NCBI GenBank assembly: GCA_017459425.1
Contig: JAFUCZ010000030.1
Coordinates: 4,096-68,095 of the forward strand
Length of the DNA: 64,000 nt
Source: Bacilli bacterium
GTDB taxonomy: Bacteria; Bacillota_I; Bacilli_A; RF39; UBA660
Reading direction: 5' to 3'
Shown here: piece by piece, positions 31,134-56,511 of the stretch
Position numbering within the stretch: position 1 is the stretch's first letter
Layout of the letters: each line of letters opens with the position of its first letter
The notes under the pieces: generated by a model
What the model was told of the DNA's origin: nothing
The model's database searches: none
The model's input: the letters and a program-made list of their open reading frames with translations, nothing else
Made by a program: the position numbers and the translations under genes

Positions 31134-32669
31134 ATGATTCTAAGAAAACCATATGCATTTCTTATAAAACAGTTTAGAATTATTCATCTTCTTTTGTCTT
31201 TTGTCGTTGCCTATTTAATATATAATACAACAGACATTTTAAAAATATATAATTCTTATATTTCATCGAAACAATTAGGCGATATATCAGTTTTATCTAG
31301 ACCTCTAATGTTTTTAGCGCTTTTTGTTTTTATAGTTTCTATTTTGATTGTTGCGATAGTCTTAAAAATAAAGAAAAAGCCTATCATGCTTTATGTAATA
31401 AATACAGTTATTACTATCACTGTAATTGGAGTTTATGCATATGCTTATTCTACATTGAAAACTCTTCAAATAGGAGCAGTAGATATTAGAATTGTAAGAG
31501 CTATAAGAGATATTTTGATTATTCTTGTTTTTTTACAAGGCATTCAATTTATAACACTTTTTGTAAGAGCTACAGGATTTGATATTAAAAAATTTGATTT
31601 TGGTGCGGATTTAATTGGACTTCAAATAACTGATGAAGATAGAGAAGAAGTAGAGGTAAGTTTAGAAGTTGATTCTGATGCATCAAAAAGAAAAATTGTT
31701 GGATTTTTAAGAAATTTCAAATATACATATATTGAAAATAAATTGCTATTTAATATATTATTTTCAAGTATATTTTTAGCTATATTAGTGTTTGTTGGAT
31801 ACAAAATAATTTTTAAAAGTAAAATATATGAAATAGGTGAAAAATTTACTATTGATAATGTTGTCATTAGTGTTAATAATTCATATATGACAGATAAAAA
31901 TTATAATGGTGAGGTTATAACTAGTGAATATGAATATGTGATTTTAGATTTATCAGTTAAATCTATTCTAGATAATCAAAGATTAAATTTGGGAAATATG
32001 TATTTATCGATAAATGGAAAAAAATATTTTGCTATAACTACAAATACAAATAATTTTATTGATTTAGGTAAGGTATACTCTAATCAGGTGTTAAGCAAGG
32101 AAGATTTTGATAAATATTTGATTGTGTTCAAAGTTTTAAAAAGTGATGTAGAAACGCAAATAAAATTGGTAGTTAATAGTTCTATAAATAGTGGCAAATA
32201 CGAGCAAGTTAATATTGGTAAGTTAGTTAATGATAGTGTTGGTGATACAAAAATTTATGGTTTTGATGATGAATTAACTTTTGACACTGAATATTTAAAA
32301 GGATATTTAAATATTTCCGGTATTGAACTTTCACATGAATTTCATGAGAATTACTCATATTGCTATAAGGAAAATTGTGATATTTATGATTATTATGTAG
32401 TTGCTTCATCTTTGAAAAATTATAATACAACTTTAATAAAGTTAGATGCTTCGTTTGAATCCGAAAATACTGATTTTACGCAATTTATTAAAAATTATGG
32501 CATTATTAGATATGGTAATGATGAATCTCAAAAGTATAGTCAGATTGAGATGGTTGAATCTAAAACAGACAATTATTATTTAGAAGTTAATAGTGATATT
32601 AATAATGCTTCCAATATATATTTAGATTTAAATTTAAGAAACAACAAATATACTATTAAATTGAAATAA
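31134..32669 (+). CDS. Polytopic membrane protein with large extracytoplasmic C-terminal domain; first gene of the pilus operon; function unknown
   Basis: AGGAGG RBS 7 nt before ATG 31134 (the track ORF uses an upstream TTG). Four N-terminal TMs, an acidic loop (DEDREEVEVSLEVDSD), a fifth TM, then a roughly 280-aa beta-rich domain. 10-nt gap to the next gene. Confidence 0.55.
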   Translation: MILRKPYAFLIKQFRIIHLLLSFVVAYLIYNTTDILKIYNSYISSKQLGDISVLSRPLMFLALFVFIVSILIVAIVLKIKKKPIMLYVINTVITITVIGVYAYAYSTLKTLQIGAVDIRIVRAIRDILIILVFLQGIQFITLFVRATGFDIKKFDFGADLIGLQITDEDREEVEVSLEVDSDASKRKIVGFLRNFKYTYIENKLLFNILFSSIFLAILVFVGYKIIFKSKIYEIGEKFTIDNVVISVNNSYMTDKNYNGEVITSEYEYVILDLSVKSILDNQRLNLGNMYLSINGKKYFAITTNTNNFIDLGKVYSNQVLSKEDFDKYLIVFKVLKSDVETQIKLVVNSSINSGKYEQVNIGKLVNDSVGDTKIYGFDDELTFDTEYLKGYLNISGIELSHEFHENYSYCYKENCDIYDYYVVASSLKNYNTTLIKLDASFESENTDFTQFIKNYGIIRYGNDESQKYSQIEMVESKTDNYYLEVNSDINNASNIYLDLNLRNNKYTIKLK

Positions 32670-32679
32670 GAGGTGAATT

Positions 32680-33327
32680 ATGAAAAAAACAAAATTGATA
32701 ATTGTAATGATATTTGCTTTTATTATTTCATTTAATGTAAGTGCTGAGTGTTCTATTGATGAATTGTCAAGATTGAAAAATACTGCAACAAATATTCAAT
32801 TTGTATATTATCCATATGAAGATAATGGTAATACTAAGTTCAATTTGATTATATCAAATTCAAAGGACTTCACATTTTATAATAATTTTATACAAGTAGA
32901 TTCTAATATGTATGGAGAAAATGGTGAAATTAGAATAAATGGTTTAAATCCGGGAGAAAATTATACATTCTATTTTTACTCTACTTCCGATAATTGCTTT
33001 GGCAATGAAGTGTATCGTAAAACAATATCTTTACCTAAAATAAATCCATATTATAATGATCCTGTGTGTAGTGGCAAGGAAGAATTTGATTTATGTAGCA
33101 AGTGGAAAGAAATAGCTATGTCATATGATGAGTTTGTTGAAAAAGTTAATTCATATCAGAAACAAGAAAAAACTGAGGAAAAAATTGAAGTTATACAAGA
33201 AGAAACATTATTAGACATGTTAATAGAAATTTATTTAAAATATTATTGGCTAATACTTGGTTCTATTGTAGTAATTGGAGTAACAATAATAATTGTTTTG
33301 AGAAGAAAAGATGATTTATTTAAGTAA
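32680..33327 (+). CDS. Secreted, C-terminally anchored protein (beta-sandwich-like ectodomain), function unknown
   Basis: Signal peptide MKKTKLIIVMIFAFIISFNVSA, four ectodomain Cys, and a C-terminal TM (YWLILGSIVVIGVTIIIVL). Confidence 0.55.
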   Translation: MKKTKLIIVMIFAFIISFNVSAECSIDELSRLKNTATNIQFVYYPYEDNGNTKFNLIISNSKDFTFYNNFIQVDSNMYGENGEIRINGLNPGENYTFYFYSTSDNCFGNEVYRKTISLPKINPYYNDPVCSGKEEFDLCSKWKEIAMSYDEFVEKVNSYQKQEKTEEKIEVIQEETLLDMLIEIYLKYYWLILGSIVVIGVTIIIVLRRKDDLFK

Positions 33328-33339
33328 GGAGGTGTATCT

Positions 33340-36168
33340 GTGAAAAAAAAGATTATAATCTTTGTTTTCTTATTTGCTTGTTGTTTTAGTGCAGGTATAG
33401 GTAAGACATTAGCTTTATTTTTTACACCAAAAATATTTTATTTTAATACTATAACTGCAATCAGTAATTACAACAAATATAAGCCAGTAGAATTTAATTC
33501 GATTAAAAATATTTCTAGTACTTTATCTTATTATACTGATGAAAAATCCGTAAAAGGCCAAGGGGTAATGTATTGGAATGATGGTACAAATACGACTTAT
33601 ACTTTTAATAATAAAAGAGTAATTTTTAAAATAACTAAAGAAAATGATTGTAGCAATAAAATTACTTTAAAGTTTAATATTACTTATGGTGACGGTAAAA
33701 CTGGTACTGCTACAGTTAAAACATCTTCTTGCAAAATAAACACTGATACGGCAACTTATGGTAAAGACAATAAAAAGTATTATGCTACTAAAACAAATGA
33801 TGATGGTAGTATATCATATGCTACATCCCCATCTATATCATTTTATATAAACGGTAATAAAGAATTAGAGATATTTACAAATGGATTAAAGCAGACTGAT
33901 TTTGAAATCACATATAATGAGAATAATCCTGTTTCTTCATCTCTTTTAGACATTGATAATTATCAAAGTTTTAAAATAGGTGGTACAAGCATAACAGCTG
34001 TTGTTAAACCCTCTAGTAATAAAGGTAACACGTACTATGATTTAAAACAACAGAGTTCTAATAATTTTACCATAGATGCACTTTGCCCTCCTAAAGTTAA
34101 TGTTTATTCGGGTTATAGTGAATGTGATCGACCTAATGATTTTGAATATGGTAAGTCTATGATATTATATAAGAAAAAATTAAGTATAAGCTTTATATTG
34201 GGCAAAAGATCTAACAATATTCAAATGAATTCTGGTGGATTTACTTTGAGTCGTGAAAACATATACAAAGACGTAACATGTGGTGATTTAAAAAACAATT
34301 GTCCATATGGGTATTCTTATAATAATAATGATAATGTAAAAATAGGTGATCATAATTTTAAAGATGTTTGCTGTCATACAACCCCTAACACATGTAGTAG
34401 TTTTTCTTGTCCTGCAGGTACGTTTAAAAATGCAAGTGCAAAAAACACAAATACAAATGGGATGACAGCTGATCAAAAAAAGAATGTGTGCTGTGTTAAT
34501 CAATGTGAGTATAAACCATCAAGCTTTGATACTGATGAGTCTAAAAAAGTATGTTGCGATTTCTTTAAAAATGATAATTATAAAAATTTACCAAGTGGTA
34601 AAACAATAGATAATTTTAAAGATGATTTTCCAGAATGTTTTGAGGGTTCAAAAGTGGAATTTGACCATAACGATGAAATATGCGAAACTGGAAAAACTAA
34701 AACAATAAAGTATAGTTCATATATGAATATAAATGGTAATAAAGAATATTCTTGGTTTAATAATTTAGATGGTTGGATTTATTTACTTAATAAGGAAAAT
34801 ATAATTGATAAAACTAATATTTCACAATTAAAAGAAAATAATTACATAACGGGTAATATTATTTCTGATGATTATTCTACATCATCTAGTTGTTCACTTG
34901 TTTGTGTAGATGAGATTAATCTAAATTTGCCTGGTGGACCTAATGCTTATGCACAGGCTGGACAACATATAGTATGGCCAAATAATAGTAACACAAAATT
35001 TCCTATAGCACCTTTAAGTGTTAATCAAGGATTGGTTTGTAGAGCAATTACAAGTAATGTTATAAATGCTGATATAAAAACAGCTTGTGATAAGTGGGGA
35101 TTGGATACTGTTAAAAGTGTTAATGCAAGTACTACTTCAAATTTCAGTTTGCAGTATTCAGGTGGTAGTTTTGATGTCAATGTTGATTTAAAAAGTGAAA
35201 ATCAATCTGAGAAGAATGTTACTTCTAGTTCTGTTGCACTCCCAACAAGAAGTTCAAATTTGTATAGAGTGAACCAAACATCAAATTATGAATTAAATCA
35301 AACAACTTTTACATATTCATACAAAAATAAAAATATTTTACCTGCTTCAGATAATTCTATTTTAGGTAGTAATATAAATATTGGTTATGGCGTATTGCCA
35401 ATAGATTGGAATAGTAAAGTAGATGATGAATATACTTTAAATTTAAAATATAATTTAGATTCAACATCCGAGGACATTTCAGGGGATTATACATGTAAAT
35501 TTAATATAGATCCGCCTGGTGGAAGTAGTGATTCTTGTCCTTTATATACATATTATCCTAATGGTAAAAGTGAAGAATTTACTAAATGCTTAAATGAAGG
35601 TGGGACTAAGAAACAATGTATAAATGATGTGTGTTATCCGGATATGAAAAAGTATTGTCCTAAAGATTGCGTAAATGGTAAATGTACTTTAACATCCCAG
35701 TCAAGTCGATATAGATTGTGTCTATATACTACTGGACAAGGGGTTGAGCATTGTCTTAAAACATATTGCGATCAAAATAATGACACTGTTGTGTATAGGA
35801 CAATTTCACTTTCTGATCCATTTCCAGGTATAAGTGGAGAAGGAAGAGCGCATGGTTCAAATTGGTCAGATGAAGATGTTACTAAAGTTATAACGAATAA
35901 ACAAGATGTCTACGAAAAAGAACCTATGTATGAAATAACTTTGGGACCATCAAGCATTAAAGCAATAAGAGAGTACAATGATAATGCTGATAAAATGTAT
36001 GGATATTTAGATTTTTCATTAGAATGTAATAAAGATGGCAAGGAATGTAGAATGAACGATTTTCTGTTTGATCAAAATATATCAAATATATTTAATACAA
36101 ATACTTGCGGTTGGCAAATACATAGTGATAAAACACAAAATTGGAACGGATGTGATTCGAGGTGGTAA
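33340..36168 (+). CDS. Large (942 aa) secreted Cys-rich protein, candidate pilus-associated adhesin or substrate; no family recognised
   Basis: GTG start after AGGAGG. Signal peptide MKKKIIIFVFLFACCFSAGIG. Dense Cys clusters (VCCHTTPNTCSSFSCPAG, NVCCVNQCEY, KVCCDFF, CPKDCVNGKCTL). No LPXTG and no C-terminal TM. Confidence 0.55.
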   Translation: MKKKIIIFVFLFACCFSAGIGKTLALFFTPKIFYFNTITAISNYNKYKPVEFNSIKNISSTLSYYTDEKSVKGQGVMYWNDGTNTTYTFNNKRVIFKITKENDCSNKITLKFNITYGDGKTGTATVKTSSCKINTDTATYGKDNKKYYATKTNDDGSISYATSPSISFYINGNKELEIFTNGLKQTDFEITYNENNPVSSSLLDIDNYQSFKIGGTSITAVVKPSSNKGNTYYDLKQQSSNNFTIDALCPPKVNVYSGYSECDRPNDFEYGKSMILYKKKLSISFILGKRSNNIQMNSGGFTLSRENIYKDVTCGDLKNNCPYGYSYNNNDNVKIGDHNFKDVCCHTTPNTCSSFSCPAGTFKNASAKNTNTNGMTADQKKNVCCVNQCEYKPSSFDTDESKKVCCDFFKNDNYKNLPSGKTIDNFKDDFPECFEGSKVEFDHNDEICETGKTKTIKYSSYMNINGNKEYSWFNNLDGWIYLLNKENIIDKTNISQLKENNYITGNIISDDYSTSSSCSLVCVDEINLNLPGGPNAYAQAGQHIVWPNNSNTKFPIAPLSVNQGLVCRAITSNVINADIKTACDKWGLDTVKSVNASTTSNFSLQYSGGSFDVNVDLKSENQSEKNVTSSSVALPTRSSNLYRVNQTSNYELNQTTFTYSYKNKNILPASDNSILGSNINIGYGVLPIDWNSKVDDEYTLNLKYNLDSTSEDISGDYTCKFNIDPPGGSSDSCPLYTYYPNGKSEEFTKCLNEGGTKKQCINDVCYPDMKKYCPKDCVNGKCTLTSQSSRYRLCLYTTGQGVEHCLKTYCDQNNDTVVYRTISLSDPFPGISGEGRAHGSNWSDEDVTKVITNKQDVYEKEPMYEITLGPSSIKAIREYNDNADKMYGYLDFSLECNKDGKECRMNDFLFDQNISNIFNTNTCGWQIHSDKTQNWNGCDSRW

Positions 36169-36171
36169 TTT

Positions 36172-36573
36172 ATGAATGAGTCTTTTTGGGGAATTGGTAT
36201 AATTTCTTTTGGAATTATTGGAGTATTCTTTATACTATTTTTCCAAGATGTTACTAATACTGATGAGCACAATTATAATTTACTTAAGGAAACTACAGAA
36301 TCAGCCATGTATGATGCATTTGATTATACTTCGTATTATGAAAATGGTACGGTTCGAATTGATAGAGAAAAATTTGTTGAAAATTTTGTTAGAAGGTTTG
36401 CTGAAAACGCAACTTTAGCAAACACTTATAAGATAAAAATATATGATATTAACGAGACACCTCCTAAGGTAAGTTTAAGTGTATCAAGTAGTAAGACTGC
36501 CGGATTCACTGGTGAGGTTGTTGAGTTTAATATACCAAATAGGCTTGATGCTATTTTAGAAACGCCATATTAA
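36172..36573 (+). CDS. Small N-terminally anchored protein, possible minor pilin/pseudopilin
   Basis: The N-terminus MNESFWGIGIISFGIIGVFFILFF resembles the leaders of the three pilin-like ORFs at 40436-41589. Starts 3 nt after the previous stop codon. Confidence 0.4.
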   Translation: MNESFWGIGIISFGIIGVFFILFFQDVTNTDEHNYNLLKETTESAMYDAFDYTSYYENGTVRIDREKFVENFVRRFAENATLANTYKIKIYDINETPPKVSLSVSSSKTAGFTGEVVEFNIPNRLDAILETPY

Positions 36574-36594: not shown

Positions 36595-37446
36595 ATGAAT
36601 AATTTTACAAATTCAATTAAGCGTTTTTTCAAAAACAAAAATACTGTAACCGTATTAGGCGTAGTATTAGTAGTCGCTATATTATACTTTGGTTACAAAT
36701 ATGAAATAAAGAAAGCTGTTGATCCAGTTACTGGAATACCTGTTGCTGCACAAGATATACAACCTAGAACAAAAATAACATCTGACATGGTTACTTCAAT
36801 TGATGTAGCGCCAATTATGCTTAAGGAAAATGTTATTAGGAGTACAGGATTAGTTATCGGTAAATATAGTAATTATAATACTATGATTCCAAAGGGGAGC
36901 ATGTTTTATACTGGTGTAGTTGTAGAAGAAAGTCAACTACCTAATGCTGCTTTAGTTAATGCTAAAGAAGATGAAATTGTTTTCCCATTTCCAGTTAATA
37001 TGGATTTAACTTATGGTAATTCAATGATGCCAAATACTCTTGTTGATATTTACATGAAGGCAACTGATGAATCAGGTAAAATAATGGTTGGTAAATTACT
37101 TGGTGATGTAGAAATACTTGCAGTAAAAGATTCTAGTGGTAAAAATGTATTTGAAAATACTGCGGAAGCTAGAACACCAGCATATTTATATTTTGGATTT
37201 GAACAAAGTGTATTTATTTTAATGAAAAAAGCATCATATTTAAATGATGTAACATTATTCCCAGTACCTAGAGGACAAGTTGTTAATGAAGAAAATGCTA
37301 CGACAGTTAAAACTCAGTATTTAAAGGATTATATTGATGCAAGAACTATAACAATAAGCGAAGATGAAATAATTAACGAAACAAAAACAAATAATACAAA
37401 TACTAGTGATAACAGTAATACTACTAATAATGGGAATACAAATTAA
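36595..37446 (+). CDS. cpaB: CpaB/RcpC-like Flp pilus assembly protein (SAF domain)
   Basis: N-terminal TM followed by the SAF-type block IPVAAQDIQPRTKITSDMVTSIDVAPIMLKENVIRSTGLVIGKYSNYNTMIPKGSMF. Confidence 0.7.
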   Translation: MNNFTNSIKRFFKNKNTVTVLGVVLVVAILYFGYKYEIKKAVDPVTGIPVAAQDIQPRTKITSDMVTSIDVAPIMLKENVIRSTGLVIGKYSNYNTMIPKGSMFYTGVVVEESQLPNAALVNAKEDEIVFPFPVNMDLTYGNSMMPNTLVDIYMKATDESGKIMVGKLLGDVEILAVKDSSGKNVFENTAEARTPAYLYFGFEQSVFILMKKASYLNDVTLFPVPRGQVVNEENATTVKTQYLKDYIDARTITISEDEIINETKTNNTNTSDNSNTTNNGNTN

Positions 37447-38642
37447 TGGATAATATGTTTGCCCAAATTGATTTTGGGCCAGTTAAAGAGTATTTAGAAA
37501 ATGATGATGTAACTGATATTTCTTATAGTAATAATGGTCAGTTATGGTTAAAAACGTTATCACGTGGTATTTTTAGAATTGAAAATGAGCAGGTAAATAA
37601 TGCTTTCATGGAAAAACTAGCCTTTCAATGTTCTAATGCAATGGGTAAGTCATTTAATATGGCCCATCCATTCTTAGATGCTGAAAGTGCAGAATTACGT
37701 CTTAATTTTGTGCATGATTCTATTGCGAAAAATGGGATTGCGGTGGTTATGAGAAAGACACCTGCAAAAATAAGACTTCAAAAAGAAAAAATAATTGAGG
37801 ATAGATATATTGAACTTGATATACATGATTTTTTAATTCAATGTGTATTAGGACATTGCAATATAATTGTATGTGGTGAAACTGGTAGTGGTAAAACAGA
37901 GTTTGTTAAGTATTTAGCAGCTCATACTGTAGAAAATGAAAAAATAATTACAATTGAGGATACTTTGGAATTGCACTTAGATAGAATTTTCCCACATAGA
38001 GATATTGTTGCAATGAAAACAAACAATATTGCAGCTTATAGTGATGTATTAGTAACGTGTATGAGACAAAATCCTAAATGGATATTACTATCAGAAGTCC
38101 GTAGTGCTGAAGCTGTAATGGCTGTTCGTAACTCTATTTCTTCAGGACATTATATTTTATCTACAATACACGCAGATAAAGCATCTTCTATTCCTAATCG
38201 TATGTATAGTTTACTTGAAACTAATCAAGATATTGAACAATTTTTAAAATCTATTTATAGGTATATTCAAATTGGTGTATATATAAGAGGTTATCAAGAT
38301 AAAACTACAAAACAGTTTAGAAGAGAAATTGCTGAAGTAACGGAATTTTATGTTACTGAAGATAATAAAGCTGAATATAATACAATTTATAAAAAGACTC
38401 CAGATGGTAAGATAACACGAAGAAATGTAAGTAAATATTTACTTGATTATTTAGAGGCTCAAGGAGTAACTTTACCTAAGGATGTTGTAAAAGGTGATGA
38501 AGAAGTTAAAGCAGCTGTGACAGAATCGTATCAGTCACCTACAACTGGTGTATTAAATGCTCAGACTGCCAATGTTAAACAAAATGATGCTGATGTATTA
38601 ACTTCTGAACCAGTTAAAAGTGAAATTGAAAGTTTATTTTAA
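37446..38642 (+). CDS. tadA: TadA/CpaF-type secretion ATPase (T2SSE superfamily)
   Basis: Walker A GETGSGKTE, Asp box ITIEDTLEL, Walker B WILLSEVR, His box LSTIHA. TAATG overlap with cpaB. Followed by two TadB/C-like genes. Confidence 0.85.
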   Translation: MDNMFAQIDFGPVKEYLENDDVTDISYSNNGQLWLKTLSRGIFRIENEQVNNAFMEKLAFQCSNAMGKSFNMAHPFLDAESAELRLNFVHDSIAKNGIAVVMRKTPAKIRLQKEKIIEDRYIELDIHDFLIQCVLGHCNIIVCGETGSGKTEFVKYLAAHTVENEKIITIEDTLELHLDRIFPHRDIVAMKTNNIAAYSDVLVTCMRQNPKWILLSEVRSAEAVMAVRNSISSGHYILSTIHADKASSIPNRMYSLLETNQDIEQFLKSIYRYIQIGVYIRGYQDKTTKQFRREIAEVTEFYVTEDNKAEYNTIYKKTPDGKITRRNVSKYLLDYLEAQGVTLPKDVVKGDEEVKAAVTESYQSPTTGVLNAQTANVKQNDADVLTSEPVKSEIESLF

Positions 38643-38654: not shown

Positions 38655-39557
38655 ATGCAAGGGTTAGTATTTGTTTTATTACTATTTATAGTAGTATTTG
38701 TCGTTGTGTATAGAAAACACAGTGGCGAAAATGTATATAAATACATTGTTAAAGAAGTTGGCGTTGTATATGATAAATATGCTCCTTATTCATTTAAACA
38801 AGTACGTGAAAAAGTAAAGGAATTAGGCCAAGAATATACTCCACGTCAATACACAATTCAAGTTGTTGCATTTGCTGGTGGAGCTGCAGTGGTATCATTT
38901 TTATATTTTTATAATTTGATTGTATGCTTATTTTATATAGCAGGCGCTATTGCTATTATTCCTTATTTGACATATTTAAGATGTAAAAGATTATATAGTG
39001 AATTTGTTTTTGAACAAATTCAGGTATATACATCTAATGTTATTATGGAATTTGCTACTACACAATCATTTGTTAAATCTTTAGAGGGTGTTTATGAATC
39101 GGGAGTTTTAGAAGATCCTGTAAAAACAGATGTAAAAACTATGATTGACATGTCATATGAAAATGGTACTATTGATCAATCACTTGAATTTATGAATAAC
39201 AAGTATGATTATTATATTGTTAAAAATATGCATCAATTGTTTTTACAAATTACTAATGAAGGATCAAAGGATGCTGGACAATCACTTGACAATATGTCAC
39301 TTGACATAGATATGCTTGTTGAAAATGTATATAGAGATCGTATGGATAGAGCAGCATTTCATAAGAAATTTTTAAGATTTGGTATTGTTCTTTATTTAAT
39401 GGCTATGTTAGTTCAATTCTTGCTTGGAGTTGATACATATATTCAAATGCTTGATTTATGGTATATACAAGTTTTACTACATTTGATACTTTTAATTAAT
39501 ACATACTTTTTACTTAGTGGTGAAAAATATTATAATGAGAATGTGGGGGCTGAATAA
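38655..39557 (+). CDS. tadB: TadB-like pilus platform membrane protein (T2SSF-like)
   Basis: Topology typical of TadB/C: an N-terminal TM, a TM pair at about residues 70-105, a roughly 120-aa cytoplasmic helical domain, and C-terminal TMs. Position is right after the ATPase. Confidence 0.65.
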   Translation: MQGLVFVLLLFIVVFVVVYRKHSGENVYKYIVKEVGVVYDKYAPYSFKQVREKVKELGQEYTPRQYTIQVVAFAGGAAVVSFLYFYNLIVCLFYIAGAIAIIPYLTYLRCKRLYSEFVFEQIQVYTSNVIMEFATTQSFVKSLEGVYESGVLEDPVKTDVKTMIDMSYENGTIDQSLEFMNNKYDYYIVKNMHQLFLQITNEGSKDAGQSLDNMSLDIDMLVENVYRDRMDRAAFHKKFLRFGIVLYLMAMLVQFLLGVDTYIQMLDLWYIQVLLHLILLINTYFLLSGEKYYNENVGAE

Positions 39558-42620: not shown

Positions 42621-42727
42621 TTTTTTGTAAAAATATATAGTTAATATTACAATATAGATTGTGACAATGCATATTTTTATTGATAAAAAACAATTGTTTT
42701 GCTATAATATGTTTAGCGGAGGTAATT

Positions 42728-49092: not shown

Positions 49093-51324
49093 TTGGCTGA
49101 AAATAATAATAGTAATAAAGAAATTGTTAACTCCAATAATGGGGTTAACAATTTAACTTCATCAGGCAATGAAGTCACAAGAAAAGATGCTGATCAAAAA
49201 TTAGATAGGGCAGGTAGTGATGCTTTACAAAAAATGGGTGTTCCTAAATCTGCCGCAGATAAAGCTATAAAGAATAATGGAGGAATGTTTTCACCTGCTA
49301 ATTTACCGGGCAATAAATTGGTTAAAAATAAAAGTAGGGATGCATTATCTAATGTACTTAATAAAAATAAAAATAGATTTCAAAACAATAATTCAAATTC
49401 AAATTTAAATATGAACAACGATGAAGAAAATAGCAATGAAAAACCTTCAGGAGATTTAAATGAAAATAAAATTCAGGAATCAAATGGCTTTAAAAAAGTT
49501 TTATCAAATGGTTTAACAAACAAAATAGGTGGTAATTTAACTGGCAGTATTTTTGGCAAAGTTAAAACTAAAATATATTTATATTTAATTGCTGCGAGTA
49601 TACCTGTTATATTTTTATTTCTTATTATCATTTTAATTGCAGGTGGTGGCGAAGAAGAAAAGAGTAAAGCTGATGATTATTTTAGTGGTGAAATGTCTGA
49701 AGAAGAGCTAGAAAGCTATTTAAAATCTGCTGGATATTGTGATGGTAACGATTGTAGTAATGCTCTTAAATATTATAAAACAATTGAAAGTAGTTTAGTT
49801 ACTGTTTCAAGGAACGAAAGAACTTATTATGCCAATTTGGTAATGGCAATTACAGGGTATGGTAGAAAAAGTAATGAGTTATTTATAATTAATTCTGACG
49901 AGATAGATGAAGTTGCAAAAAAACTAGTACAATTGAATTATTCTTCTTCAACTGATTTATCAAAATTTAATGAATTAAAAGATTATATTGTTGGAGAAAA
50001 TGGATATATTGATACTTTTAGACCTGATTTGAAAGATAAAAAAGAAAAGGCTTATAACGCTATGATTGGCAATGCATCTAAAGAAAATAAGAATACTAAA
50101 CTTGCAACTAAAAAGAAACAACGTTCAAACAGCAATGGGTCAAGATGTATTTATAATGTAAATGGTGAATCTCAAGATATAAAGGTACAATTAACAGAGT
50201 GTACTAATAGTGCATCACCTAGTACTCCTACTGTTGGAAGTCCAATGGATTTAGAGGATTATGTAAGAGGAGTATTATATGCTGAATCTTGTGTAAATAT
50301 AAATTCGAGTTATTGTAGTAGTAATGGATGGTCAATAGAGGTAGTAAAAACTCATGCAGTTGCAATTAGAAGTTTTGTACTTGCTGTTAATAGAAATGTA
50401 GGAGATGCTACTGGCGAGGGGCTTGGAACTGTTACTAAAGGTATAGCTCGTATTCAAAGTTGTACAAATAGACAAGTATACTGTAGTGTAGATTATGGAT
50501 GTTCAGAAAATTCAAACAGAACAATGGTTCCAGGTACTGCCGGTAATATTTTAAGTGGGCATTTTGGACCTATGACAGATTCATTACAGCGTGAAATATT
50601 GGAACAAGTTATAACTGAAACTCAAGGTAAAGTGTTGTATGATGGATCTGATATTGTACCTGGTAGTTATGATGCTTGGAATGGTGTTCCGACATGGAAA
50701 AAACTTGCAAATGAAGGTAATAACTATAATGAAATATTAGTTAAGTATTACTCTGCTTATAGACATGTGCCTATTACTGTAGCGACTATTGGTAAGTGTA
50801 CTTCCTCAAATATTTCTGATTATGATTGGAAGCAAACAGATCCTAGATGGGGTAGTGTATTACTTGGAACAGGTACTGCAAATATTCATAATATTGGTTG
50901 TTTGTTAACATCAACTGCTATTCAAATCGCACGTTCTGGAACAGAGGTTACTACTCCAGACTTTGATCCAGGTGTACTTGGTAATTGTATGAGACAAGCG
51001 GGTGCATTTGGTTCAAATGGTGCGTTACTTGCATGGGCTGCTAATAAACAACACTGCGCAGCACCTAATTTTGATTTTGATTATATGACTTCTGCAACTG
51101 GTTCAAAGAGTGCTATATCTAGCAAACTAGCTAGTATACTTTCGGACTCTAATAGTTATGTGATTATAAGTGTAAATAGTGGTGGTCACTGGGTTGCAGT
51201 AATAGATGTAAATGGTAGTGAAGTAACTATAATTGATCCTTGGCCAACAGGATATACTAGTTTATGGGATTTTAATATAGGTGGTACTGGTGGACAAGTT
51301 GCTGTATTTAAAAAGAAAGATTAG
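49093..51324 (+). CDS. T4SS-associated cell-wall hydrolase: SpoIID-like lytic domain plus C39-like/papain-fold peptidase domain
   Basis: TTG start after AGGTGGTGA. N-rich cytoplasmic head, TM (IYLYLIAASIPVIFLFLIIILIA), SpoIID-like block (DLEDYVRGVLYAESC...VVKTHAVAIRSFVLA...CTNRQVY), and a C-terminal DPRWG...NIGCLLTSTAIQ...GGHWVAVIDV...IIDPW. Confidence 0.65.
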   Translation: MAENNNSNKEIVNSNNGVNNLTSSGNEVTRKDADQKLDRAGSDALQKMGVPKSAADKAIKNNGGMFSPANLPGNKLVKNKSRDALSNVLNKNKNRFQNNNSNSNLNMNNDEENSNEKPSGDLNENKIQESNGFKKVLSNGLTNKIGGNLTGSIFGKVKTKIYLYLIAASIPVIFLFLIIILIAGGGEEEKSKADDYFSGEMSEEELESYLKSAGYCDGNDCSNALKYYKTIESSLVTVSRNERTYYANLVMAITGYGRKSNELFIINSDEIDEVAKKLVQLNYSSSTDLSKFNELKDYIVGENGYIDTFRPDLKDKKEKAYNAMIGNASKENKNTKLATKKKQRSNSNGSRCIYNVNGESQDIKVQLTECTNSASPSTPTVGSPMDLEDYVRGVLYAESCVNINSSYCSSNGWSIEVVKTHAVAIRSFVLAVNRNVGDATGEGLGTVTKGIARIQSCTNRQVYCSVDYGCSENSNRTMVPGTAGNILSGHFGPMTDSLQREILEQVITETQGKVLYDGSDIVPGSYDAWNGVPTWKKLANEGNNYNEILVKYYSAYRHVPITVATIGKCTSSNISDYDWKQTDPRWGSVLLGTGTANIHNIGCLLTSTAIQIARSGTEVTTPDFDPGVLGNCMRQAGAFGSNGALLAWAANKQHCAAPNFDFDYMTSATGSKSAISSKLASILSDSNSYVIISVNSGGHWVAVIDVNGSEVTIIDPWPTGYTSLWDFNIGGTGGQVAVFKKKD

Positions 51325-51332: not shown

Positions 51333-52118
51333 ATGGAAAATAAAAAAAAGTACTTTATTTTTGGAATAATCATTGTAGTTTATTTAGTTTTAACAGTGAC
51401 ATTTTTGATAATAAAAAATAGTAATGATAAGAATAATGAAAAATATCTGATTATTGATCAATATGGATTATTTATGAAAAAAAATAATAAATGGTCAACA
51501 TTTACTAAAAAAAATAGCGACTATTATATGTTTAAAAATTACGATATTTTTGATGGTCAAACATATTTAGGAAATTATACTCTTCAATATAATGATAGAT
51601 GGTATTTATGGGATGATAATAATAATTCAATACAGTATGATGATAAAATACTTGCATATCGAGGAAATGAACAAATGAAATTAAAAGTACTAGAAAATGT
51701 TGAATTAAATTCAGGCGATAATGAAATTATAAATTCTGCATTGAAAAAGATAAGTGTTAACGGTTATAGTAATTTATCTAAATCAAAAAAATATCAACTA
51801 GATTTAGATGGGGATAATAATTATGAATATGTTTATGAAATATCAAATTTAGATAGTTTTAATGAACCTGATAAATATTTTTCAATTGTATTTATTTATA
51901 ATGGAAAAGATATAGATATTATAAAAAATAGTGTTGGGAAAGAAGAAGAGTCTTTACAACTAGCAAGATTTAGTTTAGAATATAATATTAGTTTTGGAAG
52001 TGATAATTATAATCATATAATTATACAAACAATTTATTTTTCAAAACCTGATAAAACAAAATATTCAATTTATAAATATAATAAAAATAAGTTAGATTTA
52101 GTTATAGAAAATAAATAG
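51333..52118 (+). CDS. Bitopic protein in the VirB8/TcpC/PrgL position (assignment by position and topology only)
   Basis: Single N-terminal TM (YFIFGIIIVVYLVLTVTFLII) and a roughly 230-aa ectodomain, located between the hydrolase and the coupling protein. Confidence 0.35.
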   Translation: MENKKKYFIFGIIIVVYLVLTVTFLIIKNSNDKNNEKYLIIDQYGLFMKKNNKWSTFTKKNSDYYMFKNYDIFDGQTYLGNYTLQYNDRWYLWDDNNNSIQYDDKILAYRGNEQMKLKVLENVELNSGDNEIINSALKKISVNGYSNLSKSKKYQLDLDGDNNYEYVYEISNLDSFNEPDKYFSIVFIYNGKDIDIIKNSVGKEEESLQLARFSLEYNISFGSDNYNHIIIQTIYFSKPDKTKYSIYKYNKNKLDLVIENK

Positions 52119-52127
52119 GTGATTCTT

Positions 52128-54554
52128 ATGAAATTAAAATTTAGAGCTGAAAAAAAGGATGTAATAATATTTGTTATTTTTTGCATATTGCTTTTATATT
52201 TAGTTGCAATCGGAGTAGTAAATATAGCTACTTTTGCAAGTGAATCAAAATTTTCTGGATTAAATCCACTACCTGCTTTTAGTAGCGAATATTTCGCACC
52301 TACTATGGTATTTTTCTTAATAGCGCTTATTGCTATAATAAGTAGTGTATCTTCAAAGTTTTTTGAAAGAGAAAAAGGAATTGGAGTTGTAACTGCTCCA
52401 AAAGAATCTAAAGGATATGCTAGATGGGCAACTGCTAAAGAAATGAAGAAAAAATTAAAAATGGTTGACCCTAAAGCAATTGATAGTGAAGTTGCGGGTA
52501 TTCCTTTAATTAATAATGGTAAAGAAATATGGGTAGATGATAGTGAGTGGCACAATTTAATTATTGGTTCTACTGCATCAGGTAAAACTGAAAGTATTGT
52601 TCAACCTATGGTTAAGTCATTGATGAAAAAAGGTGAATCAATGATTATAACTGACCCTAAAGGTGAAATATACGAAAGAAATGGTGAAGAGTTAAAGGAA
52701 CGCGGTTATAATGTAGTTTTACTTAATTTTCGTGATCCACAAAGAGGTAATTGTTGGAATCCGATAACTTTGCCATATAGTTTATATAAAGAAGGAAAAA
52801 AAGATAAAGCAACAGAGTTGCTAGACGATTTAGCTAAAAACATTCTATATGATGAAGCTAATAAGAATGGGGACCCATTTTGGGAAAATACATCAGCTGA
52901 TTATTTTGCTGGATTATGTTTAGCTTTATTTGATGATGCTCGTGAAGAACAAATTAATTTAAATACAATTAATTTAATGACTACTGTTGGTGAAAATAAA
53001 TTAGGTGGAACTACTTATATGAAAGAGTACTTTAGTGATAAAGATCAAGGTTCTCCTGCATATATAAATGTTGCAAGTACTTTGATGGCACCAAGTGAAA
53101 CAAAGGGGAGTATTCTATCAGTATTTAAACAAAAAATTAAATTATTTTCATCTAAAGAAAATTTATCTGAAATGTTAAGTCATACTGATTTTGATATGAA
53201 AGATATAGGAAGAAAAAAAACAGCGGTATTTATTATAATTCATGATGAGAAAAAAACATACCATCCACTTGCTACAATTTTTGTAAAACAATGTTATGAG
53301 ACTTTAATAGATGTAGCATTTGAAAACGGTGGTAAATTACCTCAAAAAACTAACTTTATTCTTGATGAGTTTGCTAATATGCCTCCTTTAAAAGATGCGG
53401 ATGCAATGGTAACAGCAGCGCGTTCTCGTTTAATAAGATTTACATATATTATTCAAAACTTTGCTCAATTAACTGAGGTATATGGAAAAGAAAAAGGAGA
53501 CACTATTAAAGGTAACTGTGGTAACTGGATTTATTTAATTAGTACAGAACTTGCAGCACTTGAAGAAATAAGTAAAATGTGCGGAGATGTTAAGTCTAAA
53601 AAAGATGATAAAACAGATAGTAGGCCTCTTGTTACTGTTTCTGACTTACAAAGACTGCCAATGTATACAATGATTATATTGCGTGCACGTAGTATGCCTT
53701 TTAAAACTAAAATGACACCAGCTTGGAAAATGGATCAAGAAAATATGTGGGGCGTAAGTTATCCAAAAGCAACTTATCCAAATCGTGAAAAACAAAAAGT
53801 AGAGATATTTGATATTAAAGCTTATGTTGACGAAAAAAAAGATAAAAAAATAAGAGAAATGTTAAATAAAGGCTCTAATGACATGCCTAAAAATCCATTT
53901 ATGGATCAAATGCCAGGTATGGGTATGTTCCCACCAATGTTTGGTACAAATAATCATCAAAGAAATGAAAATAATAATTTTAATGTGGATGATTTATTAA
54001 AAAGAATAGACGCAAAAATTGCAGAACTTGAAGAAGAAGAAAAAAATGAAGCACAAGATAAGATTAAAGAACAAATTAATGATATTGATTTGGTGCCTGA
54101 TAAATTTAATGATGAAATAAAGGCACTAGATAAAATAGAAGATGATAAAATAATTCAAAATGATATTAATAATACTGATTTGAAATTAAATTTGCCAGAT
54201 TCAAGTATTAAAACTAATTCAAATACTCAAACTCAAAATAGTATTGAATTTGATAAATCAAATTCAAGTGTTAAACCAGATATTAATTCAAAAATAGAAA
54301 CTCAAATTAATAATCTTGATTTAATACCTGACAAGTTAAATGATGAAATAAAGGTATTAGACAAAATAGAAGATGATAAAGTTAATTTGAATGAATTTAA
54401 GATTAATACGTCTAATATTAAATTTCCAGAACAATTAAACAACAACAAAAATGTTGTAATTCCAAGTGAAGAAATAATAGAAGAAACAAATGATGGTAAT
54501 AATGTTGTTACTGATGATCAATTTTTTGATGATTTCTTTAGTGATGATGAATAA
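52128..54554 (+). CDS. virD4: VirD4/TraG-type type IV coupling protein with long repeat-containing acidic C-terminal tail
   Basis: Two N-terminal TMs, Walker A GSTASGKTE, Walker B NFILDEFANMP, ARSRLIRFTYIIQNFAQL. AGGTGA RBS before ATG 52128. Confidence 0.85.
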   Translation: MKLKFRAEKKDVIIFVIFCILLLYLVAIGVVNIATFASESKFSGLNPLPAFSSEYFAPTMVFFLIALIAIISSVSSKFFEREKGIGVVTAPKESKGYARWATAKEMKKKLKMVDPKAIDSEVAGIPLINNGKEIWVDDSEWHNLIIGSTASGKTESIVQPMVKSLMKKGESMIITDPKGEIYERNGEELKERGYNVVLLNFRDPQRGNCWNPITLPYSLYKEGKKDKATELLDDLAKNILYDEANKNGDPFWENTSADYFAGLCLALFDDAREEQINLNTINLMTTVGENKLGGTTYMKEYFSDKDQGSPAYINVASTLMAPSETKGSILSVFKQKIKLFSSKENLSEMLSHTDFDMKDIGRKKTAVFIIIHDEKKTYHPLATIFVKQCYETLIDVAFENGGKLPQKTNFILDEFANMPPLKDADAMVTAARSRLIRFTYIIQNFAQLTEVYGKEKGDTIKGNCGNWIYLISTELAALEEISKMCGDVKSKKDDKTDSRPLVTVSDLQRLPMYTMIILRARSMPFKTKMTPAWKMDQENMWGVSYPKATYPNREKQKVEIFDIKAYVDEKKDKKIREMLNKGSNDMPKNPFMDQMPGMGMFPPMFGTNNHQRNENNNFNVDDLLKRIDAKIAELEEEEKNEAQDKIKEQINDIDLVPDKFNDEIKALDKIEDDKIIQNDINNTDLKLNLPDSSIKTNSNTQTQNSIEFDKSNSSVKPDINSKIETQINNLDLIPDKLNDEIKVLDKIEDDKVNLNEFKINTSNIKFPEQLNNNKNVVIPSEEIIEETNDGNNVVTDDQFFDDFFSDDE
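54075..54380 (+). repeat. Two 75-nt coding repeats, 231 nt apart, in the T4CP tail
   Basis: 54075-54149 (INDIDLVPDKFNDEIKALDKIEDDK) and 54306-54380 (INNLDLIPDKLNDEIKVLDKIEDDK); most nucleotide positions are identical when aligned by eye. Confidence 0.8.
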
Positions 54555-54624: not shown

Positions 54625-55467
54625 ATGAAATATAAAAATTATTTATTAGGGTTATTATTTATATTTATGTGTTTCATTTGTGTTAATGGAGTTAGCGCAG
54701 ATGATAATAAAATTACACAAAAAATATGTGTGTATAAAATTGATGGTGGTGCTGTATCATTTGAAATAAAATCTAATCCAGATGGTTCAGATAAGTATAA
54801 ATATATTAGTGTTTTAAAAAGTAATGCTGGGAGCTTATTTGCAACTGATATTGCTAACTGGGATAAGGAAGATGATATAAATAGTTTTTCTGGTAGAGAG
54901 TATTTGACATCAAAAAATTTGTGCCCTAAACGTTTTGTAACATGTAAAAATAATTTTAATGTTAAAACTTCATGGTTTGCCTTTTCTAAATCAGACGCTC
55001 AAAAAATAAAAAATTCAAATGTTTGTGGGACATCGAATGATATTTCAATGTATACTCGTGATGATAAGGCTATATCAGCAATGGATAAAATAATAAAATC
55101 TGTGGAAGTAGCTTCCGATATTACTGATGCTGCGATTGAAGAATTTGATAAGTCATCTAATGAAGATAAAGACGATATTGAAGCTGTATGTGGAATTTTA
55201 ACTCCAAATGCACAGGAATTTATATATAGAATATTAGATTGGATAAAATATTTAGCTTTAGTACTTACTGTAGCTTTAAGTATATTAGATTTCTTTAAAG
55301 CTATGTCTAGTGAAGAAGATGATTCATTTAAAAAAGCAGCTTCAAAACTTACAAAACGAATAATAGTTGTAGTAGTGTTATTTTTACTACCTGTGTTACT
55401 TGAATTTGTACTTAAATTAGTTCATATTCAAGGAATAAATAGCAGTGATCCAATGTGTATGAAGTAA
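54625..55467 (+). CDS. Secreted protein with C-terminal VirB2/TrbC-like two-TM domain, paralog B
   Basis: Signal peptide ...FICVNGVSA/DD, a roughly 170-aa ectodomain with Cys, and a C-terminal core CGILTPNAQEFIYRILDWIKYLALVLTVALSILDFFKAMSSEEDDSFKKAASKLTKRIIVVVVLFLLPVLLEFVLKLV. Confidence 0.55.
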   Translation: MKYKNYLLGLLFIFMCFICVNGVSADDNKITQKICVYKIDGGAVSFEIKSNPDGSDKYKYISVLKSNAGSLFATDIANWDKEDDINSFSGREYLTSKNLCPKRFVTCKNNFNVKTSWFAFSKSDAQKIKNSNVCGTSNDISMYTRDDKAISAMDKIIKSVEVASDITDAAIEEFDKSSNEDKDDIEAVCGILTPNAQEFIYRILDWIKYLALVLTVALSILDFFKAMSSEEDDSFKKAASKLTKRIIVVVVLFLLPVLLEFVLKLVHIQGINSSDPMCMK

Positions 55468-55489
55468 GATAGATTTTTCTATCTTTTTT
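55466..55489 (+). terminator. Rho-independent terminator (paralogous to 56513-56536)
   Basis: Stem aagataga/tctatctt, loop tttt, then T6. Confidence 0.65.
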
Positions 55490-55546
55490 AGTTTAATATA
55501 TTTATTAATTGAGATATTAATTCATATATTGTATTAGGGTGGTTAT

Positions 55547-55834
55547 GTGAATGAAATTTCTATTGATAAAATTATTAAAAATATTAATAGTATAAATTTA
55601 ATTGATATTAGAAGTATAGAAAGTTTTAACAATAATCATATACCTGGAGCTAAGAATATTCCAATGGAGTCATTATTAATTAGTCCAAATATGTATTTAA
55701 AAAAAGATGAAAGATATTATATCTATTGTCAAAAAGGAATAAGTAGTAAAAAGATTTGTAATATATTAAAAAATTTAGGATATGATGTATATAGTATCAT
55801 AGGTGGTTATGAATCGTGGATATTAGAAAAATAA
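55547..55834 (+). CDS. Single-domain rhodanese (sulfurtransferase-like)
   Basis: LIDIRSIESFNNNHIPGAKNIP and active-site loop YCQKGISS. GTG start after AGGGTGG. Confidence 0.8.
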   Translation: MNEISIDKIIKNINSINLIDIRSIESFNNNHIPGAKNIPMESLLISPNMYLKKDERYYIYCQKGISSKKICNILKNLGYDVYSIIGGYESWILEK

Positions 55835-55896
55835 AACTCAAAATTATAGAGTTTTTTTTCTATTTATAGTATAATTATTCTAGATAGGATGGTTAT

Positions 55897-56511
55897 ATGA
55901 AAAAAAGGAATTTAATTTTACTATTAATAATAAGTGTTTTTTTAAGTATTTCAAATGTAAGTGCGGATGAAGCATGTAGTAGTATTACTGATGCAAGTAA
56001 AAAAAGTACATGTTTAGAATGTGTTAAAAAGTGTCCGAGTGATAAAAATTCAACAGCATATAATGAATGTTATAAAAAATGTCAAAACAATGCTGGGCAA
56101 TCTCAAGCGGCAGATCCAGATGCTGCTCAAGAAAGATGGGCAGAAAATTACATGGGGAATTATGTAAAATGTGGGAATAGTGGACCTATTCCAACTGCTT
56201 TTCCAATGTTAACTCGTGCTTTAATTAGACTTGTCCAAATACTTGCTCCGATTGTTTTAATAATTCTTGGGTCAATTGATTTTGCTAAAGCCGTTGCAAG
56301 TAGTGATGCAGACTTTTTAGATAAAGCAAAGAAAAAATTTGTAAGAAGGGTTATATCAGCTGTAGCAATATTTCTTGTATTTACAATTGTTAAGTTCATT
56401 ATAGCTAATATTTCAAGTGATAATGATGCCGTTAATTGTCTAGAATGCTTTATAAATAAAGCATCTAAATGTGATCCAGCAGCATATAGTAGTCATTATT
56501 CGTCAGAATAA
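55897..56511 (+). CDS. Secreted Cys-rich protein with C-terminal VirB2/TrbC-like two-TM domain, paralog C
   Basis: Signal peptide ...LSISNVSA/DE, a Cys-rich head (CSSITDASKKSTCLECVKKCPSDKNSTAYNECYKKC), core CGNSGPIPTAFPMLTRALIRLVQILAPIVLIILGSIDFAKAVASSDADFLDKAKKKFVRRVISAVAIFLVFTIVKFII, and a tail NCLECFINK. Confidence 0.55.
   Translation: MKKRNLILLLIISVFLSISNVSADEACSSITDASKKSTCLECVKKCPSDKNSTAYNECYKKCQNNAGQSQAADPDAAQERWAENYMGNYVKCGNSGPIPTAFPMLTRALIRLVQILAPIVLIILGSIDFAKAVASSDADFLDKAKKKFVRRVISAVAIFLVFTIVKFIIANISSDNDAVNCLECFINKASKCDPAAYSSHYSSE

Follow-up and report, generated by a model that had tools for sequence, protein, structure and literature searches.

The 64,000-nt stretch of DNA analyzed here (the window), from contig JAFUCZ010000030.1 (GCA_017459425.1) of a bacterium of the RF39 lineage, contains a chromosomal locus in which a Tad-like type IV filament module is followed by a type IV secretion system (T4SS) of the Gram-positive type. 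An earlier note, made from the sequence alone, had described 24 co-directional, tightly packed genes at this site; the open reading frames (ORFs) are indeed present, all on the + strand at 31134-56511 (~25 kb) with short or overlapping gaps, and every motif quoted in that note was found in the translations. We searched Pfam, NCBIfam, and PDB profiles and compared the locus with its relatives in other genomes and on plasmids. Many species have kept the locus with its halves side by side, and comparison of the encoded proteins shows that the gene set shares homology, and part of its gene order, with the tra regions of the pAW63/pXO2/pBMB67 and pLS20 plasmids. We read the locus as a domesticated DNA-transfer system, i.e., a vertically inherited, relaxase-less mating-pair formation apparatus of the plasmid type that has been kept as an RF39 host function, and we assign this reading as a whole a probability of about 0.5.

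The distribution of the locus was assessed using its VirB4 protein, which has more than 7,000 relatives at the cluster level. The best 120 are all 84-87% identical to it and come from gut metagenome-assembled genomes labeled Bacilli, Tenericutes, or Mollicutes, on contigs of up to 1.17 Mb. With one genome taken per GTDB species, at least 534 species-level genomes encode a VirB4 relative; the best 80 of these loci (77-86% identical) underlie the counts out of 80 given below, and their gene order was mapped by tblastn of all window proteins. The kept order runs from the CpaB-like protein through the ATPase, two platform proteins, pilin, two pseudopilin-like proteins, and TadZ-like protein into a variable stretch, the rearrangement-prone part of the locus, which holds VirB2-like genes, exported proteins, and usually VirB6; after it come VirB3-like, split VirB4, hydrolase, VirD4, rhodanese, RmuC, and DUF2238. 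Tad-like genes were found in 60/61 loci having at least 7.5 kb of sequence upstream of VirB4, and VirD4 in 57/57 loci having at least 8 kb downstream. At least 50/80 loci carry the rhodanese gene within the block, and the downstream junction with RmuC is kept in 46/80. Among five species anchored on the platform protein, four have the joined locus, and in one of these (L099) it stands directly after ScpA/ScpB, as in the window, without the MarR-ABC genes. In the synteny comparison, neither module was missing from any locus long enough to show it. With 60/61 VirB4-anchored loci and 4/5 platform-anchored species carrying both, the modules appear linked, and are probably not the fortuitous neighbors that the earlier note had allowed for.

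An apparent absence of VirD4 from two loci (L011 and L033) was rejected as a BLAST artifact, the proteins scoring 950-970 bits with phmmer and E 6e-56 with Pfam. The default composition-based statistics of blastp/tblastn give no alignment for these VirD4 orthologs (L011:14091-16514, L033:14386-16689), and false absences are possible with such searches.

To gauge how the locus has evolved, we analyzed pairwise distances. Those of VirB4 and RmuC correlate with a Pearson coefficient of 0.71 across 43 taxa, VirB4 being the slower of the two (mean distance 0.19 vs 0.28), and those of the two ATPases correlate with a coefficient of 0.76. When compared with L099, the slow components of the locus were 84% (VirB4), 83% (filament ATPase), and 80% (300-aa platform protein) identical, the housekeeping proteins ScpB and ScpA 54% and 48%, and the fast components 43% (pilin), 34% (first module gene), and 28% (VirB6). 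Slow cytoplasmic parts combined with fast exposed ones agree with vertical inheritance that is strongly constrained, not with a recent spread of the whole block; that the machine is under tighter constraint than neighboring housekeeping genes implies that it works for the host, for instance in DNA exchange, uptake, or delivery between cells.

We then looked for traces of mobility. Domain searches of all scanned ORFs in the locus and its flanks yielded no relaxase, Rep, integrase, or transposase domain, and tblastn with the pBMB67 MobP3 and pLS20-type MobP2 relaxases as queries returned only noise from the window and 86 related loci (1.6 Mb). The possibility of a relaxase hidden among the unassigned ORFs was also discarded, since all but 41602-42597 are exported or membrane proteins and 41602-42597 has a MinD/ParA-type fold. 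A tRNA-Leu gene sits 4.6 kb upstream of the locus, and no att-like direct repeat of its 3′ end was found; an integrative and conjugative element (ICE) inserted at this gene was rejected, as neither repeats of the 3′ end nor recombinases turned up. With neither these domains nor a tRNA repeat, an ICE with nearby boundaries is unsupported, and the locus is chromosomal, not an ICE. The flanks consist of housekeeping genes: upstream lie SufBD, a GerA/GerAC/spore-permease operon, a tRNA methyltransferase, ScpA/ScpB, tRNA-Leu(CAA), MarR, and two ABC transporters, and downstream RmuC, DUF2238, a small Bro-N/YhcG cassette, RNase R, a PGA_cap protein, and SmpB, with housekeeping genes continuing for 10 kb past the downstream end of the window. 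The earlier claim that the locus has housekeeping flanks and lacks genes for DNA processing or integration thus held up in domain, tblastn, and repeat searches of the locus, flanks, and 1.6 Mb of related loci, as did the preference for a domesticated over a mobile system, relaxase, integrase, and att repeats having been looked for and not found.

The combined architecture recurs on Bacillus plasmids. In tblastn searches of PLSDB, VirB4 had its best matches, at 29% identity, on conjugative plasmids of Bacillus thuringiensis that are 68 kb long (pBMB67 and its relatives), and the ATPase matched best the 'VirB11' of pLS20-type Bacillus plasmids (31%, E 6e-46); pXO2-size B. anthracis records were also matched. 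On pBMB67, one block holds a MobP3 relaxase, VirD4 (CD1115), a further gene, TrbL, PrgI, another gene, and VirB4, and a second block ~9 kb away holds a small transmembrane (TM) protein, a SAF protein, an AAA ATPase, a type II secretion system/type IV pilus (T2SS/T4P) ATPase, a pair of hypothetical membrane proteins, one small protein, and DUF4320. This layout is the one tabulated for pAW63 (PMC1196294). The pLS20-type plasmid pBamB1895 has a CpaF/VirB11 ATPase, two membrane proteins, small proteins, VirD4 (CD1115), pLS20_p028, VirB4, and a MobP2 relaxase. In comparisons of single genes, the CpaB-like protein matched the pBMB67 SAF protein (blastp 35% identity, E 3.5e-23; profile E 3.7e-33), the two platform paralogues matched ORFs 33793-34743 (profile E 1e-9) and 34757-35650 (profile E 3e-10), respectively, and the VirB4 N-terminal ORF matched ORF 19245-19928 (E 3e-20); as VirB4 of pBMB67 is split alike, the split is ancestral. 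Weaker pBMB67 matches were obtained for PrgI, DUF4320, and a DUF5411-like gene just upstream of the SAF gene (E 0.01, calculated, like the pLS20 platform matches below, with Z=1e5).

The gene tables of pAW63 and pLS20 list a surface protein, a small TM protein, 'VirB11', a pair of membrane proteins, and then small proteins, and the association has been in print since 2005, with the ATPase named VirB11 and its neighbors called 'unknown' (PMC1196294, PMC8557374). The pLS20 and pXO2/pAW63 'VirB11' is apparently one component of a complete Tad-like filament module that also has CpaB, platform, pilin, and TadZ-like parts. Since the combined architecture is inherited from known plasmid families, the strongest novelty claim of the earlier note, that no Firmicute system with this architecture had been described, fails: the same pairing, with detectable homology, exists in pBMB67/pAW63/pXO2- and pLS20-type plasmids. 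Papers on lactococcal conjugation (PMC10221548, PMC8194271) were considered as a further parallel and set aside, as they concern other systems without this ATPase module.

Within the filament half, the CpaB/RcpC-like protein (36595-37446) has hidden Markov model (HMM) support from TIGR03177 (E 1.9e-5) and SAF (E 0.004), and its orthologs match PF16976 RcpC. The next gene (37446-38642) encodes a secretion ATPase of the CpaF/VirB11/FlaI group with a Pfam T2SSE match at E 2.8e-26. The earlier note had named it TadA/CpaF; CpaF, VirB11, and FlaI score about equally with it: among NCBIfam models, VirB11 reached 110, the TadA type 94, and TrbB 88 bits, all under their cut-offs, and against profiles of solved structures the values were 64.3 (CpaF), 62.8 (VirB11), and 61.8 bits (FlaI). 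Judged by these profile scores, the ATPase is equidistant from all three. Two polytopic proteins follow, a 300-aa (38655-39557) and a 261-aa protein (39557-40342), which by profile-profile comparison are candidate divergent TadB/C-like platform paralogues. The two families are paralogous to one another (hhalign 93%); the 261-aa family aligns with canonical TadB/C of five genera at 91% (E 1.2e-6), and the Bacillus plasmid homologs do so at 94%. Support for the proposed TadB/C likeness comes from hhalign and not from Pfam T2SSF, which neither platform protein matches and which only one of 22 family members reaches, at E 0.15. PDB profile searches with the platform proteins were negative, and the AlphaFold model of the 300-aa protein was too poor to use (pLDDT 48). 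The 300-aa family is tiny and distinct, with 283 representatives, mostly fragments, among 1.84 billion proteins, and none of these 283 relatives matched T2SSF.

Downstream of the platform genes lie three small genes encoding candidate filament subunits. The 67-aa pilin-like protein (40436-40639) has an N-terminus conserved across 44 orthologs, in which the leader MKEA(A/T)G is followed by EANMTV and a hydrophobic helix, and it carries four conserved Cys; Pfam searches gave no match for it. Pseudopilin-like protein 1 (40660-41100) has the leader MKxSIG and then a hydrophobic helix, and protein 2 (41101-41589) is its paralogue by family alignment. The 67-aa and 146/162-aa proteins share a conserved MKExxG leader and hydrophobic helix that resemble a class III signal. 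The description of the latter two as TadE-like was not borne out, as the pseudopilin-like ORFs have no TadE match in Pfam; a weak link leads to DUF4320, matched by three members (best E 7.5e-10) of a 36-member alignment made up of the protein 1 family, its paralogue, and two plasmid counterparts. The last gene of this half (41602-42597) encodes a cytoplasmic two-domain protein that sequence methods, hhalign included, matched to nothing. Its AlphaFold model (pLDDT 75.6) has a separate N-terminal alpha/beta domain and a C-terminal domain that Foldseek matches to MinD, ParA, FlhG, and HypB with a probability of ~1.0; the Walker A motif is degenerate. The TadZ-like call hence stands on its MinD/ParA fold and not on sequence, and the model is one of TadZ/CpaE architecture. 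The accessory proteins by which a Tad pilus is recognized, CpaB/RcpC and TadZ/CpaE, are both represented in the locus.

The filament half opens with four further genes. The first (31134-32669) encodes four to five N-terminal TM helices and a large extracellular domain and has no Pfam match; its orthologs (532-539 aa) precede DUF5411 in L095, L098, L099, and L100. These orthologs share an invariant GFD(I/V)KKF after the fourth TM helix and a D-x-R in the preceding loop. A role as a novel GxGD prepilin peptidase was rejected for this protein, since there is no HMM support and the predicted topology sets the two Asp on opposite sides. A protein (32680-33327) that has a signal peptide for export and a TM anchor at its C-terminus, and whose 214- to 224-aa orthologs are kept beside the first gene, is followed by a Cys-rich candidate adhesin of 942 aa with 38 Cys (33340-36168), which is variable or absent in relatives. 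Large surface proteins upstream of the ATPase in pAW63 (PMC1196294) and Tie in pLS20 (PMC8557374) occupy the same position. The fourth gene (36172-36573) encodes a DUF5411 protein (Pfam E 2e-52) with an N-terminal TM helix, a candidate minor pilin. Together, these alignments and models lead us to conclude that the filament half probably represents a plasmid-associated Firmicute lineage of type IV filament modules, divergent and Tad-like in composition, and not a canonical Tad/Flp system.

The T4SS half contains the parts by which a Gram-positive conjugative T4SS is recognized, namely VirB4, VirD4, and VirB6-like and VirB3/PrgI-like proteins together with a wall hydrolase. VirB4 is spread over two ORFs, a separate 181-aa N-terminal domain (44621-45166; VirB4_plasma positions 101-276, 55.7 bits, E 1.9e-15) and the ATPase domain (45166-46950), for which P-loop_TraG/AAA_10 (P-loop_TraG E 2.8e-14), VirB4_plasma (362 bits), and the CD1110 family (172 bits) were matched; the earlier ATPase call was thus right, and the gene is split. 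The VirB6-like polytopic protein (47051-49072) scores 29.8 bits with TrbL_4 against a cut-off of 27 and gives weak NCBIfam matches to pLS20_p028 and Mbov_0396. Its gene lies 3′ of VirB4 in the window and upstream of the VirB3-like gene in most other species (L005-L084). The VirD4 coupling protein (52119-54554) matches T4SS-DNA_transf at E 1e-53 and the NCBIfam CD1115 family at 303.6 bits (cut-off 250). The calls of SAF/CpaB, VirB4, VirB6-like, and VirD4 proteins are accordingly backed by TIGR03177, VirB4_plasma, TrbL_4, and CD1115. VirD4 ends in a repetitive acidic tail, in which an internal 128-nt direct repeat (54072-54430; 75% identity, 231-nt spacing) encodes an acidic motif twice, IN(D/N)(I/L)DL(V/I)PDK(F/L)NDEIK(A/V)LDKIEDDK, that may dock a substrate or partner.

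The remaining components of this half are more divergent or variable. The PrgI/VirB3-like gene gives a profile match to PrgI of pBMB67 (E 0.017), and a PrgI_like domain was found in one VirB3-like ortholog; the identification holds, and the ORF (44332-44571) is truncated here, a single-base stop at 44569-44571 (GAA to TAA) cutting the gene (44332-44655) from 107 to 79 aa. Two near-identical metagenome contigs, one of which (L001) differs from the window at three of 21,785 positions, have G there and encode a 107-aa PrgI/VirB3-like product, as do ~80 orthologs; the stop is due either to a nonsense mutation in this strain or to an error in sequencing. The cell-wall hydrolase (49093-51324) was rightly described as having two domains as far as SpoIID is concerned (E 1.2e-5), but its Cys/His-containing C-terminal domain was not recognized as Peptidase_C39_2 in profile searches. 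This hydrolase swaps domains among relatives, with a C-terminal CHAP in L011, SpoIID+CHAP in L098, and Peptidase_M23 in L097/L099/L100. The bitopic protein at 51333-52118 had been proposed as VirB8, a call that comes from its position alone and is not upheld by any Pfam or PDB profile match. A VirB2-like T4SS pilin paralogue (43908-44249; T4SS_pilin E 0.001, under the cut-off) and two exported Cys-rich proteins, one with a T4SS-pilin-like double-TM end (54625-55467; T4SS_pilin E 0.005, Mbov_0395 family E 0.007) and one with a T4SS-pilin-like C-terminal half (55897-56511; DUF7772 E 0.001), match one another. Between the latter two lies the gene for a rhodanese-domain protein (55547-55834; Pfam E 7.7e-17), and a bitopic exported protein whose position differs among relatives (42680-43819) precedes the first VirB2-like gene.

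The Cys content of the exported proteins of the locus is unusually high (6.0% in the pilin, 4.9% in a 204-aa protein, and 4.0% in the 942-aa protein), compared with ~0.7% in its cytoplasmic components. Given Cys-rich exported proteins at 33340-36168, 40436-40639, 43908-44249, and 54625-56511 and a rhodanese inside the locus, a link to disulfide or sulfur chemistry is possible.

As a mechanism for the domesticated DNA-transfer system, we propose that the ATPase, the two platform proteins, the CpaB/RcpC-like protein, and the TadZ-like localization factor would assemble a short filament made of the 67-aa pilin and three or four minor pilins sharing the MKExxG leader. This filament and the Cys-rich surface proteins would cross the wall and contact a partner cell, the hydrolase would open the peptidoglycan, the split VirB4 and the VirB3-like, VirB6-like, and VirB2-like proteins would form a membrane channel, and VirD4 would feed a cytoplasmic substrate into it. 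The presence of VirD4 in all 57 informative loci argues for a substrate recruited from the cytoplasm; because, in addition, all relatives are conjugation systems, DNA is favored. The substrate is most likely DNA, which would pass between related cells in a conjugation-like chromosomal exchange analogous to Mycoplasma chromosomal transfer or to Sulfolobus Ups and Ced, with the nicking enzyme encoded elsewhere or dispensed with.

Several observations weigh against this interpretation. Neither a Flp G/XXXXEY motif nor a Flp_Fap match was found in the 67-aa pilin, no prepilin peptidase (Peptidase_A24, TadV/CpaA) was found among the ORFs of the locus or window, and the 300-aa platform family aligns with canonical TadB/C at only 17% in hhalign, so that filament assembly is putative. 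Gram-positive conjugation systems seem to have no pilus (PMC11730352), and in the literature searched we found no study that tests whether the homologous plasmid module builds one. VirD4 proteins work in protein-translocating T4SSs too, which leaves the kind of substrate purely a matter of inference. The relaxase negative covers the locus, flanks, and related loci and leaves room for a relaxase elsewhere in the genome, the window's own VirB3-like gene has a premature stop, and the RF39 lineage apparently has no cultured member. Finally, in Ca. Faecisoma sp. (L095, L096) the locus ends after the pilin gene. These two loci, identical in platform protein, differ after the pilin, where one finds RelA/SpoT and its neighbors or, alternatively, insertion sequence (rve) fragments, an N_methyl pilin-like gene, and PolC; the break reflects either a rearrangement in this species or chimeric assemblies.

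The same domesticated apparatus might, in place of DNA, deliver proteins such as effectors, toxins, or nutrient-scavenging factors into neighboring bacteria or host cells and so serve a dependent lifestyle, comparable to rvh of the Rickettsiales, the killing T4SS of Xanthomonas, and the T4SS-like genes found in Saccharibacteria. We consider this rather doubtful, though worth keeping in view: the lack of a relaxase across 1.6 Mb of related loci and the fast divergence of surface components would suit it, order-wide retention under strong purifying selection suggests a physiological necessity more than an occasional sex apparatus, and in RF39 genome reduction goes with an incomplete synthesis of peptidoglycan precursors (PMC7301438, PMC10868615). 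However, no candidate effector, immunity gene, or toxin domain was found in or beside the locus, VirD4 belongs to the conjugative coupling-protein family CD1115, and the closest relatives are all conjugation systems. DNA uptake, in which the Tad-like filament would capture external DNA and the T4SS channel import it, as in H. pylori ComB and archaeal Ced, seems unlikely. Relaxase-less T4SSs such as ComB and Ced can import DNA, Tad-like pili are reportedly needed for transformation in Micrococcus luteus, and VirB4 and VirD4 give weak NCBIfam matches to CedD (48.7 bits) and CedB (18.8 bits), respectively; yet these scores are far under the cut-offs, the homologous plasmid systems export DNA, and ComB works without VirD4, which RF39 has in every informative locus.

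It is similarly improbable that an adhesive Tad-like pilus and a separate T4SS merely stand side by side. The Ca. Faecisoma loci, where unrelated genes follow the pilin, and the rearrangement of the region between the halves among species are what one would expect of independent systems, but the halves are adjacent in all but one of the 61 VirB4-anchored loci and in four of the five platform-anchored species, unrelated families of Bacillus plasmids combine them in their tra regions, and the distances of their two ATPases correlate. We regard as very improbable an ordinary or decaying ICE whose relaxase and integrase lie outside the window. The nearby tRNA-Leu, the absence in L099 of the MarR-ABC genes that separate it from the locus, and upstream neighbors that differ among some species could be taken as hints of one; against them stand the missing tRNA 3′-end repeat, the 10 kb of housekeeping genes past the downstream end, and the RmuC junction kept in 46/80 loci, and core genes that are intact and highly conserved in 80 loci, with VirB4 in at least 534 species, are the opposite of decay or strain-variable carriage.

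Monoderm conjugative T4SSs are known almost solely from mobile elements, and their mating-pair formation is poorly understood. T4SSs have been domesticated before, as in ComB, rvh, and Ced, and a domesticated DNA-transfer system in RF39 would be a natural example for Gram-positive conjugation, comparable to these cases in other envelopes; a host-level function could shape RF39 recombination and ecology. Our search for literature on RF39 in connection with T4SSs, pili, or competence found nothing relevant, and in the literature searched two points look undescribed: the order-wide, chromosomal, relaxase-less version of the system in RF39, and the recognition of the plasmid 'VirB11' as part of a full filament module, which is directly testable in genetically tractable Bacillus. 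A more far-reaching idea, which we put forward tentatively, is that RF39, a small-genome order abundant among gut bacteria, turned a plasmid mating apparatus into a core organelle whose filament is the missing 'pilus' of Gram-positive conjugation, used for relaxase-independent chromosomal exchange or for feeding on or manipulating neighbors. If so, conjugation machinery would be a lineage-defining trait and not a property of mobile elements.

Some features of the window lie outside this argument. Its G+C content is ~25%, and the + strand holds nearly all genes between 26.6 and 62 kb. Promoter and terminator scans gave the same counts as in shuffled sequence and, in DNA of 25% GC, are uninformative for that reason. 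The GerA/GerAC/spore-permease operon (12910-16505) is on the - strand, against an otherwise co-directional region; given this germination-receptor operon, the RF39 member probably sporulates, consistent with the earlier description of the host as a spore-former. Named relatives, Ca. Fimihabitans and Ca. Faecisoma, belong to GTDB order RF39, family CAG-822 (PMC8035907). Between DUF2238 and the RNase R side, a stretch at 58200-60883 resembles a small inserted cassette: a 42-nt terminator-like repeat (58200-58241 / 58771-58812, 98%) and a 56-nt repeat (58654-58709 / 60828-60883, 88%) enclose two genes, Bro-N (58888-59706) and one for a YhcG/DUF1016 PD-(D/E)XK nuclease (59814-60830).

Among known systems, the pAW63/pXO2/pBT9727 backbone, compared via pBMB67, shares with the RF39 locus VirD4 of family CD1115, a TrbL-type VirB6, PrgI/VirB3, and split VirB4, and in its second block a surface protein, a DUF5411-like protein, SAF/CpaB, an AAA ATPase, the T2SS/T4P ATPase, two polytopic proteins, a pilin-like protein, and DUF4320; homology to pBMB67 was detected for the CpaB-like protein, the ATPase, each of the two platform proteins, both parts of VirB4, and VirD4. 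In contrast to the RF39 locus, pBMB67 is self-transmissible and carries its MobP3 relaxase beside VirD4, identities between the two are 21-35%, and the AAA (TadZ-like) gene precedes the ATPase in pBMB67 but follows the pseudopilins in RF39. In the pLS20 family, the Tie adhesin (gene 34), gene 36 (126 aa, N-terminal TM), gene 37 ('VirB11'), the polytopic genes 38/39, gene 40 (120 aa), and gene 41 (47-aa pilin-like) agree in order with the Tad-like half and are followed by VirD4 CD1115, a pLS20_p028-type VirB6, and VirB4. This family differs in that its relaxase is annotated MobP2 (mobL) in pBamB1895, no CpaB-like or TadZ-like gene is evident, and platform homology is weak (E 0.07-0.17), and it is under quorum-sensing control (PMC8557374).

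The T4SS of Mycoplasma ICEs (MICEs), whose hosts belong to the same broad Bacilli/Mollicutes radiation as RF39, likewise lacks a canonical relaxase, and its Mbov_0397 model is the best NCBIfam match of the window's VirB4 (362 bits), although the window proteins miss the equivalog cut-offs (VirB4_plasma 362 vs 590, Mbov_0396 25.6 vs 70, Mbov_0395 16 vs 40). The Mycoplasma system supports chromosomal DNA exchange; MICEs are, however, mobile, with a DDE transposase and no Tad-like module, whereas the RF39 locus shows neither mobility nor such a transposase and does have the Tad-like module. With Caulobacter Cpa and Aggregatibacter Tad, representing Tad/Flp pili, the filament half has in common a single locus containing a CpaB/RcpC-like protein, a secretion ATPase of the CpaF group, a pair of paralogous candidate platform proteins, a pilin of very small size, pseudopilin-like proteins, and a TadZ-like protein with a MinD fold, and it differs from them in the absence of G/XXXXEY, of TadV in the window, and of Pfam T2SSF, TadE, and Flp_Fap matches. 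The R64 thin pilus and PAPI-1, both type IVb pili of diderms, offer a parallel for a filament that is encoded with a conjugative T4SS and aids mating-pair formation, but theirs is another filament class in a diderm envelope, on a mobile element with a relaxase. In Sulfolobus, the Ups type IV pilus works with a VirB4-type DNA transporter. Together with H. pylori ComB and Rickettsiales rvh, archaeal Ced and Ups resemble the RF39 locus in being chromosomal, lineage-conserved, and without a relaxase of their own; these systems are diderm or archaeal and not homologous in detail, whereas the RF39 apparatus is that of a monoderm, with a linked filament module and an intact VirD4.

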